Part shown: positions 1 through 5,339 of the stretch, piece by piece | Position numbering within the stretch: the first letter of the stretch is position 1 | Layout of the letters: each line of letters opens with the position of its first letter | Virus record (IMG/VR): IMGVR_UViG_2648501390_000019 | Direction: 5' to 3' (one strand) | Source of the DNA: a virus | Lineage: Duplodnaviria; Heunggongvirae; Uroviricota; Caudoviricetes | DNA length: 5,339 nucleotides | Position numbers and translations under genes: made by a program | Notes under the pieces: generated by a model | What the model saw: only the letters and a program-made list of their open reading frames with translations | The model's database searches: none | Told to the model about the DNA's origin: nothing

Positions 1-134
1 GGTTCGGTGGGGACGGAGGGCGCGATATTTTATCGTCTGCGGATGTGGCGGATGTCATGGTGGATGATGCCGCATTAATGATGGCTTCAGCGGGGATTCC
101 GGGAGGTGTGAGATATGTCCCAGCCGGTTGGTGA
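1..134 (+). CDS. T: Tail assembly chaperone gpT-like, 3' end only (C-terminal part of the G-T frameshift product; 5' end lies outside the window)
   Basis: Frame 3 is open from the window edge to a TGA at 132..134 (translation FGGDGGRDILSSADVADVMVDDAALMMASAGIPGGVRYVPAGW*). It overlaps the H start by 20 nt, matching the lambda T/H arrangement as I recall it. Position immediately upstream of H fits the conserved order. Confidence 0.65.
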   Translation, partial: FGGDGGRDILSSADVADVMVDDAALMMASAGIPGGVRYVPAGW

Positions 135-2688
135 TCTTGTTATTGACCTGAGTCTGGATGCTGTCCGTTTCGATGAGCAGATGAGCCGGGTAAGGCGTCA
201 TTTTTCAGGTCTGGATACCGACGCCAGAAAAACCGCCAGTGCTGTTGAACAGGGCCTGAGCCGCCAGGCGCTGGCTGCACAAAAAGCCGGGATTTCCGTC
301 GGGCAGTATAAAGCGGCCATGCGAACCCTGCCCGCACAGTTTACGGATATCGCCACGCAGCTTGCCGGTGGTCAGAATCCCTGGCTGATCCTGCTGCAAC
401 AGGGCGGTCAGGTGAAGGACTCCTTCGGCGGGATGATCCCCATGTTCAGGGGGCTTGCCGGTGCGATCACCCTGCCGATGGTCGGGGTCACCTCGCTGGC
501 GGTGGCGACAGGTGCGCTGGCGTACGCCTGGTACCAGGGCGACGCCACGCTTTCAGAATTTAATAAAACGCTGGTCCTTTCCGGCAATCAGGCCGGACTG
601 ACTGCCGATCGTATGCTGACGCTCTCAAGAGCCGGGCAGGCAGCAGGGCTGACGTTTAACCAGGCGAGAGAGTCACTGGCAGCCCTGGTGAATGCCGGTG
701 TGCGTGGTGGTGAACAGTTTGATGCCATCAACCAGAGTGTCGCGCGTTTTGCGTCTGCATCCGGTGTGGAGGTGGATAAAGTCGCTGAAGCCTTCGGGAA
801 GCTGACCACTGACCCGACGTCGGGACTGATGGCGATGGCGCGCCAGTTCCGTAACGTGACGGCAGAGCAGATTGCGTATGTTGCACAGCTGCAGCGTTCC
901 GGAGACGAGGCCGGGGCATTGCAGGCGGCGAACGATATCGCCACGAAAGGCTTTGATGAGCAGACCCGTCGCCTGAAAGAAAACATGGGAACACTGGAGA
1001 CCTGGGCGGATAAAACAGGGAAGGCATTCAAATCGATGTGGGATGCCATTCTGGATATCGGTCGTCCGGAATCCTCAGCGGATATGCTCGCCAGTGCGCA
1101 GAAGGCATTTGATGAGGCGGATAAAAAATGGCAGTGGTACCAGAGCCGGAGCCAGCGCCGGGGAAAGACCTCCTCTTTTCGTGCGAACCTTCAGGGGGCA
1201 TGGGATGACCGGGAAAATGCCCGTCTGGGTCTGGCAGCGGCCACGCTGCAGTCGGATATGGAAAAAGCCGGTGAACTGGCGGCAAGGGACAGGGCTGAGC
1301 GTGAGTCGTCACAGCTGAAGTATACCGGAGAGGCGCAGAAGGCGTATGAGCGCCTGCAGACGCCGCTGGATAAATATACCGCCCGTCAGAAAGAGCTGAA
1401 TAAGGCCCTGAAAGACGGAAAAATCCTGCAGGCGGATTACAACACGCTGATGGCGTCGGCAAAAAAGGATTATGAATCGACGCTGAAAAAGCCGTCAGGT
1501 GTGAAGGTGTCTGCCGGTGAGCGCCAGGAAGACCGGGCGCATGCAGCCCTGCTGGCGCTTGAAACCGAGCTCAGGACGCTGGAAAAACACAGCGGTGTGA
1601 ATGAGAAAATCAGCCAGCAGCGCCGGGATTTATGGGAAGCGGAAAGTCAGTATGTGGTCCTGAAAGAGGCCGCCACGAAACGGCAGTTATCTGAGCAGGA
1701 AAAATCCCTGCTGACCCATGAGAAAGAGACGCTGGAGTACAAACGCCAGCTGGCTGAGCTGGGAGACAAGATTGAACACCAGAAGCGGCTGAATGAGCTG
1801 GCACAGCAGGCGGCGCGGTTTGAACAGCAGCAAAGCGCGAAGCAGGCGGCAATCAGCGCAAAAGCCCGCGGCCTCACCGACCGTCAGGCGCAGCGGGAGT
1901 CGGAAGAGCAGCGCCTTCGTGAGGTGTACGGTGATAATCCGGCTGCGCTGGCGAAGGCCACATCGGCACTGAAGAACACCTGGTCTGCGGAGGAGCAGCT
2001 TCGTGGAAGCTGGATGGCCGGGATGAAGTCCGGCTGGGGAGAGTGGGCGGAAAGTGCGACGGACAGTTTTTCGCAGGTTAAAAGTGTGGCCACGCAGACC
2101 TTTGACGGTATTGCACAGAATATGGCGGCGATGCTGACCGGCAGCGAACAGAACTGGCGCAGCTTCACCCGTTCCGTGCTGTCCATGATGACAGAAATTC
2201 TGCTTAAGCAGGCAATGGTGGGGATTGTCGGGAGTATCGGCAGCGCCATTGGCGGGGCTGTTGGTGGCGGCGCATCCGCGTCAGGCGGTACAGCCATTCA
2301 GGCCGCTGCGGCGAAATTCCATTTTGCAACCGGAGGATTTACGGGAACCGGCGGCAAATATGAGCCAGCGGGGATTGTTCACCGTGGTGAGTTTGTCTTC
2401 ACGAAGGAGGCAACCAGCCGGATTGGCGTGGGGAATCTTTACCGGCTGATGCGCGGCTATGCCACCGGCGGTTATGTCGGTACACCGGGCAGTCTGGCAG
2501 ACAGCCGGTCGCAGGCGTCCGGGACGTTTGAGCAGAATAACCATGTGGTGATTAACAACGACGGCACGAACGGGCAGATAGGGCCACAGGCGCTGAAGGC
2601 TGTGTATGACATGGCCCGCAAGGGTGCCCGTGATGAAATTCAGACACAGATGCGTGATGGTGGACTGTTCTCCGGAGGTGGACGATGA
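115..2688 (+). CDS. H: Tail tape measure protein, lambda gpH family
   Basis: 857-aa ORF with ATG at 115 preceded by GGGAGGTG. The translation is recognisably lambda gpH-like along its length (N-terminus MSQPVGDLVIDLSLDAVRFDEQM..., C-terminus ...QTQMRDGGLFSGGGR). It has hydrophobic segments near residues 88-140, a charged central region, and a Gly-rich hydrophobic stretch near the C-terminus (MVGIVGSIGSAIGGAVGGGASASGG). Lambda gpH is 853 aa from memory. Confidence 0.95.
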   Translation: MSQPVGDLVIDLSLDAVRFDEQMSRVRRHFSGLDTDARKTASAVEQGLSRQALAAQKAGISVGQYKAAMRTLPAQFTDIATQLAGGQNPWLILLQQGGQVKDSFGGMIPMFRGLAGAITLPMVGVTSLAVATGALAYAWYQGDATLSEFNKTLVLSGNQAGLTADRMLTLSRAGQAAGLTFNQARESLAALVNAGVRGGEQFDAINQSVARFASASGVEVDKVAEAFGKLTTDPTSGLMAMARQFRNVTAEQIAYVAQLQRSGDEAGALQAANDIATKGFDEQTRRLKENMGTLETWADKTGKAFKSMWDAILDIGRPESSADMLASAQKAFDEADKKWQWYQSRSQRRGKTSSFRANLQGAWDDRENARLGLAAATLQSDMEKAGELAARDRAERESSQLKYTGEAQKAYERLQTPLDKYTARQKELNKALKDGKILQADYNTLMASAKKDYESTLKKPSGVKVSAGERQEDRAHAALLALETELRTLEKHSGVNEKISQQRRDLWEAESQYVVLKEAATKRQLSEQEKSLLTHEKETLEYKRQLAELGDKIEHQKRLNELAQQAARFEQQQSAKQAAISAKARGLTDRQAQRESEEQRLREVYGDNPAALAKATSALKNTWSAEEQLRGSWMAGMKSGWGEWAESATDSFSQVKSVATQTFDGIAQNMAAMLTGSEQNWRSFTRSVLSMMTEILLKQAMVGIVGSIGSAIGGAVGGGASASGGTAIQAAAAKFHFATGGFTGTGGKYEPAGIVHRGEFVFTKEATSRIGVGNLYRLMRGYATGGYVGTPGSLADSRSQASGTFEQNNHVVINNDGTNGQIGPQALKAVYDMARKGARDEIQTQMRDGGLFSGGGR

Positions 2689-3014
2689 AAACCTTCCGCT
2701 GGAAAGTGAAACCCGGGATGGATGTGACATCGGCTCCTTCCGTCAGGGAGGTGCGCTTTGGTGATGGCTATTCCCAGCGTGCGCCTGCCGGGCTGAACGC
2801 TGACCTGAAAACGTACAGCGTGACGCTGTCTGTCTCCCGTGAGGAGGCCACGGCGCTGGAGTCGTTTCTGGCTGAGCACGGGGGCTGGAAGGCCTTTCTG
2901 TGGACGCCGCCTTATGGTTACAGGCAGATAAAGGTGACCTGCGCAAAATGGTCGTCGCAGGTCAGTATGTTGCGTGTTGAGTTCAGCGCAGAGTTTAAAC
3001 AGGTGGTGAACTGA
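2685..3014 (+). CDS. M: Minor tail protein M, lambda gpM family
   Basis: 109-aa ORF, the same length as lambda gpM, with translation MKTFRWKVKPGMDV...RVEFSAEFKQVVN recognisable as gpM. The start overlaps the H stop in an ATGA (2685..2688). A GGAGGTGG Shine-Dalgarno lies just upstream. Confidence 0.93.
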   Translation: MKTFRWKVKPGMDVTSAPSVREVRFGDGYSQRAPAGLNADLKTYSVTLSVSREEATALESFLAEHGGWKAFLWTPPYGYRQIKVTCAKWSSQVSMLRVEFSAEFKQVVN

Positions 3015-3712
3015 TGCAGGATATCCGGCAGGAAACACTGAATGAATGCACCCGTGCGGAGCAGTCGGCCAGCGTGGTGCTCTGGGAAATCGATCTGACA
3101 GAGGTCGGTGGAGAACGTTATTTTTTCTGTAATGAGCAGAACGAAAAAGGTGAGCCGGTCACCTGGCAGGGGAGACAGTATCAGGCGTATCCCATTCAGG
3201 GGAGCGGTTTTGAACTGAATGGCAAAGGCACCAGTACGCGGCCCACGCTGGCAGTCTCTAACCTGTACGGCATGGTCACCGGTATGGTGGAAGATATGCA
3301 GAGTCTGGTCGGCGGAACGGTGGTCCGGCGTAAGGTTTACGCCCGTTTTCTGGATGCGGTGAACTTCGTCAACGGAAACAGCGACGCCGATCCGGAGCAG
3401 GAGGTGATCAGCCGCTGGCGCATCGAGCAGTGCAGCGAACTGAGCGCGGTCAGTGCCTCCTTTGTACTGTCCACGCCGACGGAAACGGACGGCGCTGTTT
3501 TTCCGGGACGTATCATGCTGGCCAACACCTGCACCTGGACCTATCGCGGTGATGAGTGCGGTTATCACGGTCCGGCAGTCGCGGATGAATATGACCAGCC
3601 GACGTCCGATATCACGAAGGATAAATGCAGCAAATGCCTGAGCGGCTGTAAGTTCCGCAATAACGTCGGCAACTTTGGCGGCTTCCTTTCCATTAACAAA
3701 CTTTCGCAGTAA
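3014..3712 (+). CDS. L: Minor tail (tip) protein L, lambda gpL family; C-terminal Cys cluster consistent with an Fe-S site
   Basis: 232-aa ORF, the same length as lambda gpL, with translation MQDIRQETLNECTRAEQSASVVLWEIDL... recognisable as gpL. The start overlaps the M stop in TGATG (3012..3016). A GGTGGTG Shine-Dalgarno-like sequence lies upstream. Cysteine codons at 3530, 3557, 3626, 3635 and 3647 are clustered in the last 60 residues. Confidence 0.93.
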   Translation: MQDIRQETLNECTRAEQSASVVLWEIDLTEVGGERYFFCNEQNEKGEPVTWQGRQYQAYPIQGSGFELNGKGTSTRPTLAVSNLYGMVTGMVEDMQSLVGGTVVRRKVYARFLDAVNFVNGNSDADPEQEVISRWRIEQCSELSAVSASFVLSTPTETDGAVFPGRIMLANTCTWTYRGDECGYHGPAVADEYDQPTSDITKDKCSKCLSGCKFRNNVGNFGGFLSINKLSQ

Positions 3713-3716
3713 TCCC

Positions 3717-4460
3717 ATGACAGAGACAGAATCAGCGATTCTGGCGCACGCCCGGCGATGTGCGCCAGCGGAGTCGTGCGGCTTCGTGGTGAGAACGCCG
3801 GAGGGGGAAAGATATTTCCCCTGCGTGAATATCTCCGGTGAGCCGGAGGCGTATTTCCGGATGGCTCCGGAGGACTGGCTGCAGGCAGAGATGCAGGGTG
3901 AGATTGTGGCGCTGGTCCACAGCCACCCCGGTGGTCTGCCCTGGCTGAGTGAGGCTGACCGGCGGCTGCAGGTGCAGAGTGATTTGCCGTGGTGGCTGGT
4001 CTGCCGGGGGGCGATTCACAAGTTCCGCTGTGTGCCGCATCTCACCGGGCGGCGCTTTGAGCACGGGGTGACGGACTGTTACACGCTGTTCCGGGATGCT
4101 TACCATCTGGCGGGGATTGAGATGCCGGATTTTCATCGCGGGGATGACTGGTGGCGTCACGGTCAGAATCTCTATCTGGACAATATGGAGGCTACAGGGC
4201 TGTACCGTGTCGCACTGACAGAGGCGCAGCCGGGCGATGTGCTGCTGTGCTGTTTTGGTTCATCGGTGCCGAATCACGCCGCCATTTACTGCGGCGACGG
4301 TGAGCTGCTGCACCATATTCCTGAACAACTGAGTAAACGAGAGAGGTATACCGACAAATGGCAGCGACGCACACACTCCCTCTGGCGTCACCGGGCATGG
4401 CACGCATCTGCCTTTACGGGGATTTGCAACGATTTGGCCGCCGCATCGACCTTCGTGTGA
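3717..4460 (+). CDS. K: Tail tip assembly protein K, lambda gpK family (JAB/MPN metalloprotease-like domain plus NlpC/P60-like domain); start codon uncertain
   Basis: The frame is open from the L stop to a TGA at 4458..4460. ATG at 3717 lies 5 nt after the L stop (possible coupling, no clear Shine-Dalgarno) and gives 247 aa. ATG at 3861, preceded by GGAGG with an 11-nt spacer, gives the 199-aa form that I recall as the lambda reference annotation. The JAMM motif HSHPGGLPWLSEAD (H-x-H-x7-S-x2-D) is at 3918..3959. An NlpC/P60-like Cys (DCYTL) is at 4077..4079, with His residues downstream (NHAAIY...LLHH). The track's 3675 start is a TTG that overlaps L. Confidence 0.85.
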   Translation: MTETESAILAHARRCAPAESCGFVVRTPEGERYFPCVNISGEPEAYFRMAPEDWLQAEMQGEIVALVHSHPGGLPWLSEADRRLQVQSDLPWWLVCRGAIHKFRCVPHLTGRRFEHGVTDCYTLFRDAYHLAGIEMPDFHRGDDWWRHGQNLYLDNMEATGLYRVALTEAQPGDVLLCCFGSSVPNHAAIYCGDGELLHHIPEQLSKRERYTDKWQRRTHSLWRHRAWHASAFTGICNDLAAASTFV

Positions 4461-4999
4461 AAACGGGGGCTGAAGCCATCCGGGCACTGGCCACACAGCT
4501 CCCGGCGTTTCGTCAGAAACTGAGCGATGGCTGGTATCAGGTACGGATTGCCGGGCGGGATGCAGGAGAAACCGAATTATCATCCCGTCTTAATGAGCCG
4601 CTGGCAAATGGTGCCGTGATCCACATCGTGCCGCGTCTTGCGGGAGCAAAAAGTGGCGGTGTGTTTCAGGCGGTGCTGGGTGCGGCGTTGATTGCTACGG
4701 CAATCTGGATGCCGGGGATCAGTATCGCTTTCAGTGACATTCTCTTTTCAATGGGTGCGGCGATGACGCTTGGTGGTGTGGCGCAGATGCTGGCACCGAA
4801 AGCCAGAACTCCCCGTACACAGACAACGGATAACGGCAAACAGAACACCTATTTCTCCTCACTGGATAACATGGTTGCCCAGGGCAATGTCCTGCCTGTT
4901 CTGTACGGTGAAATGCGCGTGGGGTCACGTGTGGCATCTCAGGAGATCAGCACGGCAGATGAAGGGGATGGTGGTCAGGTTGTGGTAATTGGGCGGTAA
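4358..4999 (+). CDS. I: Tail assembly protein I, lambda gpI family (N-terminal ubiquitin-like region ending in Gly-Gly, hydrophobic C-terminal region)
   Basis: 213-aa ORF with ATG at 4358 preceded by GAGAGG, and translation MAATHTLPLASPGMARICLYGDLQRFGRR... ending ...EGDGGQVVVIGR, recognisable as gpI. It overlaps the 3' end of K by 103 nt in a different frame, as in lambda. A di-glycine is at residues 100-101 (4655..4660), followed by a long hydrophobic segment. Confidence 0.9.
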   Translation: MAATHTLPLASPGMARICLYGDLQRFGRRIDLRVKTGAEAIRALATQLPAFRQKLSDGWYQVRIAGRDAGETELSSRLNEPLANGAVIHIVPRLAGAKSGGVFQAVLGAALIATAIWMPGISIAFSDILFSMGAAMTLGGVAQMLAPKARTPRTQTTDNGKQNTYFSSLDNMVAQGNVLPVLYGEMRVGSRVASQEISTADEGDGGQVVVIGR

Positions 5000-5072
5000 T
5001 ATTATTTTACTCATGTTCTAACTAATTTAATATTTATATCGAACACTGATAATTATTCTATTGGTTAGCTAT
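5000..5072 (+). promoter_or_regulatory. AT-rich intergenic segment; candidate promoter region for the downstream lipoprotein ORF (weak, unverified)
   Basis: A GATAAT hexamer at 5048..5053 is a 5/6 match to the -10 consensus, but I found no convincing -35. The region is so AT-rich that hexamer matches are expected by chance. Confidence 0.2.
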
Positions 5073-5249
5073 ATGAACAAAACGATTTTATTCTGCACGA
5101 TTATTGCCTTAACAGGATGTAAATCTTTGGATTACGTAAAATCCGGAAAACCTGTAATGGAAGGTAATTCATTAAAAAATATTGATGAATTGTCAGGCTG
5201 CATATCCAGACAATGGGCTGGTAATGGAACACCTATAACATCCCGGTGA
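5073..5249 (+). CDS. Putative small lipoprotein; reading frame runs into the IS1 end and is probably truncated by the insertion
   Basis: ATG at 5073 gives MNKTILFCTIIALTGCKSL..., a classic lipoprotein signal peptide: a short basic n-region, a hydrophobic core, and a lipobox L-T-G-C with Lys at +2. The segment is AT-rich, unlike the tail module. The last codons (cgg, tga at 5244..5249) are supplied by the IS1 terminal repeat, so the native C-terminus is not known. The track's TTG start at 5061 is less likely. Confidence 0.45.
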   Translation: MNKTILFCTIIALTGCKSLDYVKSGKPVMEGNSLKNIDELSGCISRQWAGNGTPITSR

Positions 5250-5267
5250 TGCTGCCAACTTACTGAT
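5245..5267 (+). repeat. IS1 left terminal inverted repeat (about 23 bp)
   Basis: GGTGATGCTGCCAACTTACTGAT at the outer end of the IS1 match. Confidence 0.8.
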
Positions 5268-5299
5268 TTAGTGTATGATGGTGTTTTTGAGGTGCTCCA

Positions 5300-5339
5300 G
5301 TGGCTTCTGTTTCTATCAGCTGTCCCTCCTGTTCAGCTA
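5300..5339 (+). CDS. insA: IS1 InsA (transposition repressor / N-terminal part of the InsAB' transposase), 5' end only
   Basis: GTG at 5300 followed by GCT TCT GTT TCT ATC AGC TGT CCC TCC TGT TCA GCT, which translates to (M)ASVSISCPSCSA, the InsA N-terminus including its first Cys pair. It sits 56 nt into the element, as expected for insA. Confidence 0.8.
   Translation, partial: MASVSISCPSCSA

Follow-up and report, generated by a model that had tools for sequence, protein, structure and literature searches.

Morons are small accessory genes added to phage genomes. Among the best described is gene 15 of phage HK97 (Juhala et al., 2000; Cumby et al., 2012; reviewed in PMC3594210), which lies between the tail chaperone and tape measure genes. 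Its product, gp15, is a YebO-like inner-membrane protein, and its promoter, its expression from the prophage, and its exclusion phenotype have all been demonstrated. Two sets of phage lipoproteins are also relevant: (i) Cor of phages phi80, N15, and mEp167, together with Llp of T5, receptor-blocking lipoproteins that are small, carry a type II signal peptide, and are encoded close to receptor-binding tail genes (PMC4936722; PMC11436027); and (ii) lambda Bor/Iss, prophage-encoded outer-membrane lipoproteins of ~100 aa for serum resistance that are carried as lysogenic-conversion cargo. The locus considered here resembles HK97 gene 15: it is a single small gene for an envelope-targeted protein, it lies within a lambda-like tail operon and runs in the direction of the tail genes, its GC content differs from that of its neighbors, and it is present or absent among otherwise collinear phages. 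Its Enterobacter homolog even occupies the same chaperone-to-tape-measure slot. In contrast to gp15, however, the product is a predicted lipoprotein of unrelated sequence, and the gene is known from sequence. It shares the signal peptide type and the tail-proximal position with Cor and Llp, but has no detectable homology to Cor, is set beside Llp by analogy alone, has a predicted TBP-like or helix-grip fold, and does not track one J receptor-binding type. It is likewise unrelated in sequence to Bor, whose gene neighbors the lysis genes, on the other strand, and is not part of the tail operon.

The window, i.e., the whole 5,339-nt stretch of DNA analyzed, is probably one whole short-read contig and is 99.3% identical to the prophage of strain UTI89. 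By sequence comparison, it comes from a UTI89-type lambdoid prophage and covers the tail block H-M-L-K-I. Its features are listed below; UTI89 coordinates refer to the extracted locus L001 (window coordinate = L001 coordinate - 4201), and the five complete tail genes were taken from the open reading frame (ORF) list and the UTI89 annotation.

1..134, + strand: tail assembly gene T, 3' part only, truncated at the window start (offset from the UTI89 'phage tail assembly protein T', L001 3922-4335)
115..2688, + strand: tape measure gene (lambda H equivalent), 857 aa, intact
2685..3014, + strand: minor tail gene M equivalent, 109 aa, intact
3014..3712, + strand: minor tail gene L, 232 aa, intact
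3717..4460, + strand: tail gene K (C40 peptidase), 247 aa, intact
4358..4999, + strand: tail assembly gene I, intact, TAA stop at 4997-4999
5000..5244, + strand: 5' 245 bp of the AT-rich moron cassette (whole cassette ~435 bp), 245/245 identical to UTI89 and absent from empty-site relatives
5009..5015, + strand: ACTCATG, a 7-bp direct repeat; its second copy (L001 9630-9636) is at the right-hand edge of the intact cassette
5073..5120, + strand: predicted lipoprotein signal peptide, codons 1-16, lipobox LTGC, with Cys16 as the predicted lipidation site (translation)
5073..5244, + strand: lipoprotein gene interrupted by IS1, retaining native codons 1-57 (of 112) and base 1 of codon 58 (translation)
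5236..5244, no strand: TAACATCCC, 9 bp that a simple insertion should have copied to the right IS1 end (sequence)
5245..5339, + strand: left end of IS1, with the terminal inverted repeat from 5245 and the insA start codon GTG at 5300, continuing past the window end

H, M, L, K, and I contain 0 internal stop codons and are 99-100% identical to their UTI89 counterparts; 855 residues of the tape measure protein are identical. The start of I given above is that of the longest ORF, and the UTI89 RefSeq annotation (PGAP) places it at 4424.

The base composition changes abruptly at the end of this block. GC content is 58.3% over positions 1-4999 vs. 31.0% over 5000-5244. Sliding windows of 245 nt within the tail genes have a mean of 58.5% (sd 3.0%) and a minimum of 50.2%, so the drop amounts to ~9 sd, and it begins one base past the I stop. 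The initial annotation of this DNA, made from the sequence alone, had placed the turn to AT-rich DNA exactly at that stop codon and had read the jump as a junction with foreign DNA, an inference that we judge to be correct. It had also stated that J begins about 60 bp past the I stop in lambda (the lambda sequence has the I stop at 15444 and the J start at 15505, leaving a 60-bp spacer) and had described the ORF at the expected J position as encoding a lipoprotein signal peptide instead of a gpJ N-terminus. The translation agrees with this description. The ATG at 5073, 73 nt past the I stop, opens MNKTILFCTIIALTGC, in which residues 13-16 (L-T-G-C) fit the lipobox pattern [LVI][ASTVI][GAS]C, and the gpJ N-terminus, MGKGSSKGHTPREA, differs from it.

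Relatives of the prophage indicate where the AT-rich DNA belongs. The 5000-5244 segment adjoins I in ~337 of 5,426 complete E. coli genomes, in all of which it is annotated as 'tail assembly protein' followed by 'hypothetical protein', and it is 100% identical together with the end of I in UTI89, APEC O1, S88, and IHE3034. The end of I, the complete ~435-bp cassette, and the start of J are contiguous in 334 E. coli genomes. In UTI89, the intact cassette (L001 9201-9635) consists of a gene for a 112-aa lipoprotein and a hairpin, and is followed directly by an intact J; the first 100 nt of J include ATGGGTAAAGGAAGCAGTAAGGGG. The two prophages that were inspected, those of UTI89 and O104:H4 strain HUSEC2011, both carry I, the gene for the 112-aa hypothetical protein, gpJ, lom, stf, and tfa in this order. 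The I-J spacer is 478 bp in UTI89 vs. 60 bp in empty-site E. coli prophages, and in a spread sample of the other genomes the I and J flanks are mostly two pieces spanning 383 bp; the cassette takes the place of ~17 bp of the lambda-type spacer. As judged from these genomes, the AT-rich DNA is a normal resident of UTI89-type prophages. An association of the cassette with one J receptor-binding type was considered and rejected: the UTI89-type J C-terminus occurs in 3,348 genomes vs. 334 for the cassette, a roughly ten-fold difference, and the cassette is thus not tied to that J type.

The protein encoded by the intact cassette has all the features of a type II signal peptide, MNK-TILFCTIIA-LTGC, with a basic n-region, a hydrophobic core, and a lipobox, of which G15 and C16 are invariant in 16 homologs. 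It would presumably be exported, lipidated at Cys16, and, given a lysine at the +2 position, sorted to the outer membrane by the +2 rule. Residues 1-112 of the UTI89 protein match positions 1-118 of the 118-position phrog_914 profile (E-value 7.3e-33). The annotated product in both UTI89 and HUSEC2011 is WP_001332187.1, and its first 57 residues match those of the window, whose copy is cut at codon 58 by IS1. Homologs form 78 clusters from at least eight enterobacterial genera, with identity down to ~25%. Across these clusters the lipobox cysteine is invariant and Cys43 and Cys111 are conserved; the latter two probably form a disulfide. The AlphaFold model of the intact protein (pLDDT 83.7, pTM 0.76) predicts an alpha/beta domain of ~95 residues with a TBP-like or helix-grip fold. 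In the window, the frame continues into IS1, where it adds a single Arg before a stop at 5247-5249. The resulting 58-residue stub would keep the signal peptide and lose the beta-sheet core, the C-terminal helix, and the conserved Cys111; lacking these, the truncated product is very probably non-functional.

The cassette has the main hallmarks of a moron in the Hendrix/Juhala definition (as summarized in PMC3594210). It is extra DNA relative to collinear relatives (478 vs. 60 bp, with 334 genomes filled), and its GC content is deviant (31% vs. 58.3% in the window). The lipoprotein gene of UTI89 has 36% GC between flanks of 58%, its homologs in other genera have 41-44% between flanks of 50-57%, and GC is shifted in the same direction, below that of the neighbors, in seven other homolog loci. 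Homologs occupy several positions in the tail module. The Enterobacter homolog lies in a T-X-H slot, which is that of the HK97 gp15 moron (PMC3594210); homologs in Klebsiella, E. coli, and phages Fraca and LMessi lie in a K-X-I slot; the cassette of the window is in an I-X-J slot; and a K. oxytoca homolog follows J.

How such a gene would be expressed can be read in two ways. A consensus scan of the + strand of the cassette detected no sigma-70 consensus promoter, and the best manual match, TTAATA-15-GATAAT, is weak (9/12, spacer poor). In every locus the gene points the same way as the tail genes, and in the K-X-I loci only 23-32 nt separate it from K, which suggests that it may be a late-operon passenger without expression in lysogens. 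A hairpin of 9 pairs followed by a T-run lies 3' of the intact gene (L001 9636-9656, -16.7 kcal/mol, z -4.1). It ends just before the ribosome-binding site of J, beyond the IS1 site, and similar hairpins follow homologs in other tail-internal slots. An equivalent hairpin, however, also precedes J at empty sites and in lambda, and is therefore not specific to the cassette. The missing consensus promoter, the shared orientation with short spacers, and the hairpin at empty sites are consistent with a dispensable gene that is transcribed only together with the tail genes and acts in lytic growth. For instance, it could mask receptors on the dying cell and so spare progeny from adsorbing to debris, as has been proposed for T5 Llp. 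We consider this reading rather doubtful: the 73-nt AT-rich leader in the window and leaders of 86-210 nt in other slots leave room for a non-consensus promoter, and the HK97 prophage does express gp15 from an equivalent slot (PMC3594210).

The right-hand end of the window is an insertion sequence. Positions 5245-5339 are identical at 95/95 positions to the left end of a complete 768-bp IS1 from strain 3045, and database matches to them carry IS1A/IS1B transposase annotation. The junction is exact at 5244/5245, so that the window ends 95 bp inside IS1. The initial annotation had correctly closed the AT-rich segment at 5244, the last base before IS1, and had overlooked that the window itself stops within the element. 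IS1 prefers AT-rich targets and generates a 9-bp target duplication on insertion; most IS1 copies are simple insertions with such a duplication. Here, the element sits in the sole AT-rich stretch of an otherwise GC-rich operon, and it interrupts the lipoprotein gene at codon 58. If the insertion was simple, the right end of IS1 would be followed by TAACATCCC, then by TTCCTATTGAGAATGG, and then by J, the start of which would lie ~1.2 kb past the I stop (the 478-bp spacer plus ~777 bp of IS1 and duplication).

Several collections were searched for this arrangement. The cassette-IS1 junction was absent from the complete E. coli genomes (megablast, coverage at most 82%) and was not found in the plasmid collection. 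A degenerate 42-mer for either junction, assuming a 9-bp duplication, gave 0 matches in GTDB representatives, IMG/VR, and JGI metagenomes, and matched the window itself as a control. Exact-product look-up of the truncated ORF with both start codons returned nothing. Since the junction is missing from all of these collections, it is from the relatives that we infer J beyond IS1 here, and with it lom and the fiber genes. A related event does exist in strain 3045, in which a complete IS1 joins this cassette at the equivalent of window position 5187, 58 bp away. The 9-mers flanking that copy differ (acagattta vs. gaattgtca), i.e., there is no target duplication, and int/xis/exo lie on its other side, which together indicate that this prophage has lost its head and tail genes but retains J and lom. 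The two elements are independent insertions into the same cassette, and an association with a deletion is seen in strain 3045.

The preferred interpretation, which we hold to be very likely, is that the AT-rich DNA is an accessory cassette cut by a simple IS1 insertion and that J is merely out of view because the window ends inside IS1. Within the window, J is indeed absent from its expected position, as the initial annotation stated: there is no J start motif anywhere in it, and tblastn finds J-like coding sequence only at E > 1. That annotation proved accurate on every element that it described, and its interpretation was right in part. Of its two alternatives, a cargo cassette between I and J is borne out by the 334 genomes in which I, cassette, and J are contiguous. 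The presence of 5000..5244 at the same site in IS1-free relatives was one half of what it had named as favoring a simple cargo insertion over a deletion, and this half is observed. On the other hand, its heading, that the tail module ends abruptly with J replaced by AT-rich DNA, is not supported in that form, as the window just stops 95 bp into IS1. Deletion of J from a defective prophage likewise lacks support as proposed, given that the cassette is normally resident with J directly downstream in those 334 genomes.

A rival reading in line with that deletion is that the prophage was broken at IS1. Whatever followed (the remaining cassette, J, lom, and the fiber genes) would then be gone or relocated, and the prophage would be defective for want of its receptor-binding protein. 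Nothing contradicts this directly, because the window ends in IS1, and strain 3045 provides a precedent, with a large prophage deletion next to an IS1 in the equivalent cassette. We nevertheless regard it as unlikely, and less likely than the presence of J beyond IS1. J is directly downstream in 334/337 cassette-bearing genomes, simple insertion is the usual outcome for IS1, and the five tail genes, all intact, share 99-100% identity with their counterparts in prophages that seem complete, as a recent and simple insertion would predict. What looks like a loss of J is accounted for by the cassette, IS1, and the end of the window, and should not be taken as a sign of a receptor-less defective prophage.

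The function of the intact lipoprotein can be addressed only tentatively. The likeliest single role, on the analogy with Cor, Llp, and the HK97 gp15 moron, may be an envelope function that helps the lysogen or the phage, such as receptor masking or superinfection exclusion, although the proposal is a speculative one. A wider proposal, also doubtful, is that the phrog_914 lipoproteins are an unrecognized tail-module family of outer-membrane proteins that mask a receptor or exclude phages, and that their AT-rich cassette is a recurrent IS1 target seeding prophage decay; such a family would be unrelated to Cor, Llp, and Bor, have a TBP-like alpha/beta fold, and occupy at least four intergenic slots in the Enterobacteriaceae. 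Literature searches on the protein accession and on I-J lipoproteins retrieved nothing specific. The PADLOC-DB defense models gave 0 families at E ≤ 1, and structure comparison yielded a generic fold match only. The one meaningful match in BFVD is a 93-aa uncharacterized protein of Pseudomonas phage phiAH14a. A match to Rfam GcvB (19.6 bits against a gathering score of 42) was rejected as chance.

It is very improbable that the protein is instead a diverged Cor, Bor/Iss, or Rz1-type spanin sharing the function of that family. It is a small prophage lipoprotein encoded near tail-tip genes, and cor genes likewise adjoin tail-fiber genes (PMC4936722), with phage Fraca carrying both. However, hhalign gives probabilities of 7.6% against Fraca Cor and 14.9% against lambda Bor, in each case with only the signal peptide aligned; Pfam gives no match and NCBIfam only a sub-threshold match to the VirB7 signal peptide; the PDB profile search returns only the signal peptide of FlgP (E-value 0.78); and the gene position is wrong for a spanin. 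Membership in the Cor or Bor family is refuted at the level of sequence, and the separate cor gene in Fraca argues that Cor and this lipoprotein are not redundant copies.

Finally, one could take the AT-rich segment for non-coding filler, or for a scar left where foreign DNA replaced J, and the lipoprotein-like ORF for a chance frame. Short ORFs arise easily in AT-rich DNA, the ribosome-binding site before the ATG at 5073 is weak, and the original genome annotations seem to have omitted the gene (its RefSeq locus tags are late additions). This reading is refuted by conservation, namely the full-length phrog_914 match and the 78 clusters with an invariant lipobox cysteine and conserved Cys43 and Cys111; the structure model is also confident, and J is intact just downstream in relatives.

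For the window, the main result is a correction, and the case is an ordinary one. The wider point is modest: a conserved, uncharacterized lipoprotein gene resides in the tail operons of prophages of prominent pathogens. If its role turned out to be superinfection exclusion or modification of the envelope, the few phage lipoproteins known to alter the phage susceptibility of their host would gain a new family, with relevance to phage-therapy host range in ExPEC lineages. Among the homologs, a 134-member 'partial' cluster (P0003) was considered as a sign of recurrent contig breaks in the cassette; this was rejected, because for most of its members the better explanation is that gene callers took Met29 for the start codon.

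The window holds a lambda-like prophage tail block, with all of its genes on the + strand:

1-134, +, 3' end of tail gene T
115-2688, +, tape-measure gene H, complete
2685-3014, +, M, complete
3014-3712, +, L, complete
3717-4460, +, K, complete
4358 or 4424 to 4999, +, I, complete (stop codon 4997-4999)

Over nucleotides 1-5244 the window shares 99.3% identity with a prophage found in UTI89, NU14, PMV-1 and numerous further complete E. coli genomes; the five complete tail genes have no internal stops and share 99-100% protein identity with UTI89. The window starts inside T and ends inside IS1. The tail block has a median of 3 matching places per E. coli genome and the segment with the IS1 end a median of 11, which suggests that the window is an entire short-read contig, both ends of which lie in sequence matching several places in most E. 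coli genomes.

GC content is 58.3% over 1-4999 vs. 31.0% over 5000-5244. Since GC stays at 50.2% or more in all 245-nt stretches within the tail genes (mean 58.5%, sd 3.0%), this is a fall of about 9 sd, beginning at the first base past the I stop. The I-J spacer of lambda is 60 bp. In the window the next ORF starts with an ATG at 5073 and reads MNKTILFCTIIALTGC..., a stretch that combines a basic n-region with a hydrophobic core and an L-T-G-C lipobox and that differs from the gpJ N-terminus. Neither a J start motif nor J-like coding sequence was found across the whole window. The initial annotation located the I stop, the GC fall, the lipoprotein ORF (as distinct from gpJ) and the start of IS1 at 5245 correctly; its headline, that J is absent and replaced by AT-rich DNA, is a product of the window boundary and of a cassette resident between I and J. 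It gave no weight to the window ending within IS1.

The 4990-5250 segment was found in 337 of 5,426 complete E. coli genomes, always labelled 'tail assembly protein' and 'hypothetical protein'. In UTI89 and the O104:H4 strain HUSEC2011, it opens a 339-bp gene whose 112-aa product is WP_001332187.1, and 3' of this gene come an intact gpJ of 1,159 aa, then lom, a gene for a side tail fibre, and tfa. A query joining the I end, the cassette and the J start was fully covered in 334 genomes, in line with the second alternative of the initial annotation, a cargo between I and J; in the sampled rest of the ranking, the I and J flanks matched as two pieces, 383 bp apart. When filled and empty sites are aligned, the cassette falls between the I stop and a GC-rich hairpin ahead of the J ribosome-binding site, where ~435 bp (9201-9635 of the UTI89 locus, L001; 34% GC) stand in place of ~17 bp of lambda-type spacer, so that the I-J spacer grows from 60 bp to 478 bp. 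Widely used reference genomes already contain the cassette, with its gene annotated as hypothetical, and phrog_914 is its catalogue entry.

The two edges of the intact cassette share a 7-bp ACTCATG (window 5009-5015, L001 9630-9636), and the empty site carries TTATGTGA at the join; this could be a recombination footprint or chance, and no meaning is attached to it. The I end and cassette start also occur, 100% identical, at 71287-71631 of NZ_CP082081.1, a 150-kb E. coli record in the plasmid collection that could be a phage-plasmid or a misassigned replicon. A draft contig (1-258 of L022, a contig end of GCA_052569625.1) begins in the cassette at codon 28 and runs into J and lom; a repeat or an IS may have caused the break.

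The cassette portion of the window is identical to UTI89 up to 5244 (245/245), after which the sequence is that of IS1: over 5245-5339, 95/95 nucleotides match the left end of a complete 768-bp IS1, and database matches to this stretch are annotated as IS1A/IS1B transposase. Because UTI89 identity stops at 5244, the element sits after the first base of codon 58, and the truncated ORF reads on into it through one Arg codon to a stop. An accessory cassette is resident between I and J, and the IS1 insertion cuts its only gene at codon 58. What is left is a 58-residue stub that has neither the beta-sheet core nor the C-terminal helix nor Cys111 and therefore should be non-functional; a look-up found no identical record of this product. 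The cassette/IS1 junction, searched with a pattern that does match the window itself, had no match in complete E. coli genomes, plasmids, GTDB representatives, IMG/VR or JGI metagenomes.

The window stops 95 bp into IS1, and the J region of the source genome lies beyond view. Short-read assembly contigs commonly end at repeats, and we infer that the window end is such an assembly break. The initial annotation had proposed that an intact J just downstream of IS1, with 5000-5244 at the same site in IS1-free relatives, would indicate simple cargo insertion; 5000-5244 does lie at that site in IS1-free relatives, with J intact downstream in UTI89 and HUSEC2011, and any J beyond IS1 would lie past the window end. 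It is unlikely that J fails to follow IS1 in the source genome: E. coli strain 3045 (NZ_CP103570.1) offers a precedent, in which an IS1 event in the same cassette was accompanied by loss of the entire head and tail region, but J is kept directly downstream in 334 of the 337 cassette-bearing genomes and the tail genes of the window are intact. For these two reasons a recent simple insertion is favoured, and J probably follows IS1.

In strain 3045, a complete 768-bp IS1 (3233-4009 of its locus, L021) has the same orientation as that of the window, and its right end abuts the cassette at window-equivalent 5187, 58 bp upstream of the window junction. It shows no target duplication, as the flanking 9-mers differ (acagattta vs. 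gaattgtca); int, xis and exo flank it on the opposite side, and the cassette 3' half, J and lom are kept. This is an independent event in the cassette, associated with deletion of head and tail genes.

The intact 112-aa protein matches phrog_914 (function unknown) end to end (E 7e-33). Pfam and PADLOC gave no match, NCBIfam only a signal-peptide hit below threshold, and a PDB profile search nothing past a signal peptide. Sequence and profile searches gave 78 homolog clusters, the named sources of which are all Enterobacterales (Escherichia, Klebsiella, Kluyvera, Enterobacter, Citrobacter, Atlantibacter, Jejubacter, and Pantoea); source-given names are solely 'hypothetical', 'uncharacterised' or plain 'Lipoprotein'. 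Neither the lipobox Gly-Cys nor Cys43 varies, and Cys111 is nearly invariant; we infer that the exported domain contains a disulfide. A confident AlphaFold model (11 homologs; pLDDT 83.7, pTM 0.76) has a beta-alpha-beta4-alpha domain. Among viral models it has one clear match, to an uncharacterised 93-aa protein of Pseudomonas phage phiAH14a (E 1.7e-5, TM 0.70/0.83), which corresponds by size to a gene listed in that phage beside a copy of tail assembly gene I (PMC4936722). Membership of the Cor or Bor families was rejected, as profile comparisons with Cor of phage Fraca (probability 7.6%) and lambda Bor (14.9%) aligned signal peptides alone. Two ENA-derived proteins (P0019 and P0020) carry short stretches identical or near-identical to the lipoprotein fused to unrelated sequence, in one case with an acyl-carrier-type PF00550 domain; both are probably chimeras of metagenome assembly.

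All homologs sit inside lambda-like tail modules and share the strand of the tail genes, but the slot varies:

T to tape-measure gene: Enterobacter
K to I: Klebsiella, a second E. coli subfamily, phages Fraca and LMessi
I to J: the prophage type of the window
after J, at the prophage end: K. oxytoca

In Fraca (L003 6725-7336), classed in Hendrixvirinae, and LMessi (L004 6647-7336), a distant homolog (~30% identity) and a second small hypothetical gene lie between K and I. Fraca has a separate annotated cor gene further downstream (L003 12579-12812), and therefore the two lipoproteins coexist.

The gene has a lower GC content than its flanks at all loci examined (36-44% vs. 50-58%). The cassette has the extra DNA and the deviant composition of a moron. 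No consensus promoter was detectable in the cassette, and some homologs have just 23-32 nt upstream of the gene. In tail-internal slots, a GC-rich hairpin and T-run lie 3' of the lipoprotein gene, just ahead of the next tail gene (L003, L004, L007, L011 and L016 in other tail-operon slots). Between I and J, a stable GC-rich hairpin and U-rich run precede the J ribosome-binding site with or without the cassette:

L001 9636-9656: UTI89, cassette-bearing
L014 ~763-785: lambda
L005 ~419-440: empty-site prophage

The late operon around this hairpin is Q-antiterminated. An Rfam GcvB hit to the gene 3' half and hairpin (L001 9439-9664; 19.6 bits vs. gathering 42, E 0.063) was dismissed as chance, the terminator-like hairpin driving the score.

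Textbooks describe both morons inserted into lambdoid tail operons and IS1 inserted into prophages, and the lipoprotein is filed as an uncharacterised example of known moron-type cargo; literature searches found no description of a function for the phrog_914 lipoprotein family or of its occupying several tail-operon slots. The Enterobacter homolog shares the T-to-tape-measure slot with gene 15 of HK97, the founding 'moron', whose product acts in superinfection exclusion (PMC3594210). By established lipoprotein biology, the intact product would be exported, receive its lipid at Cys16 and, with Lys at +2, be sorted to the outer membrane. By analogy alone, it may alter the cell envelope in a way that benefits the lysogen or the phage, and receptor masking or superinfection exclusion is tentatively put forward as its likeliest role, as for Cor, which adjoins tail-fibre genes (PMC4936722; PMC11436027), and for gp15, whose gene lies within the tail operon. 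The UTI89-type J C-terminal region occurs in 3,348 genomes vs. 334 for the cassette, which argues against a strict link between the cassette and the phage's own receptor.
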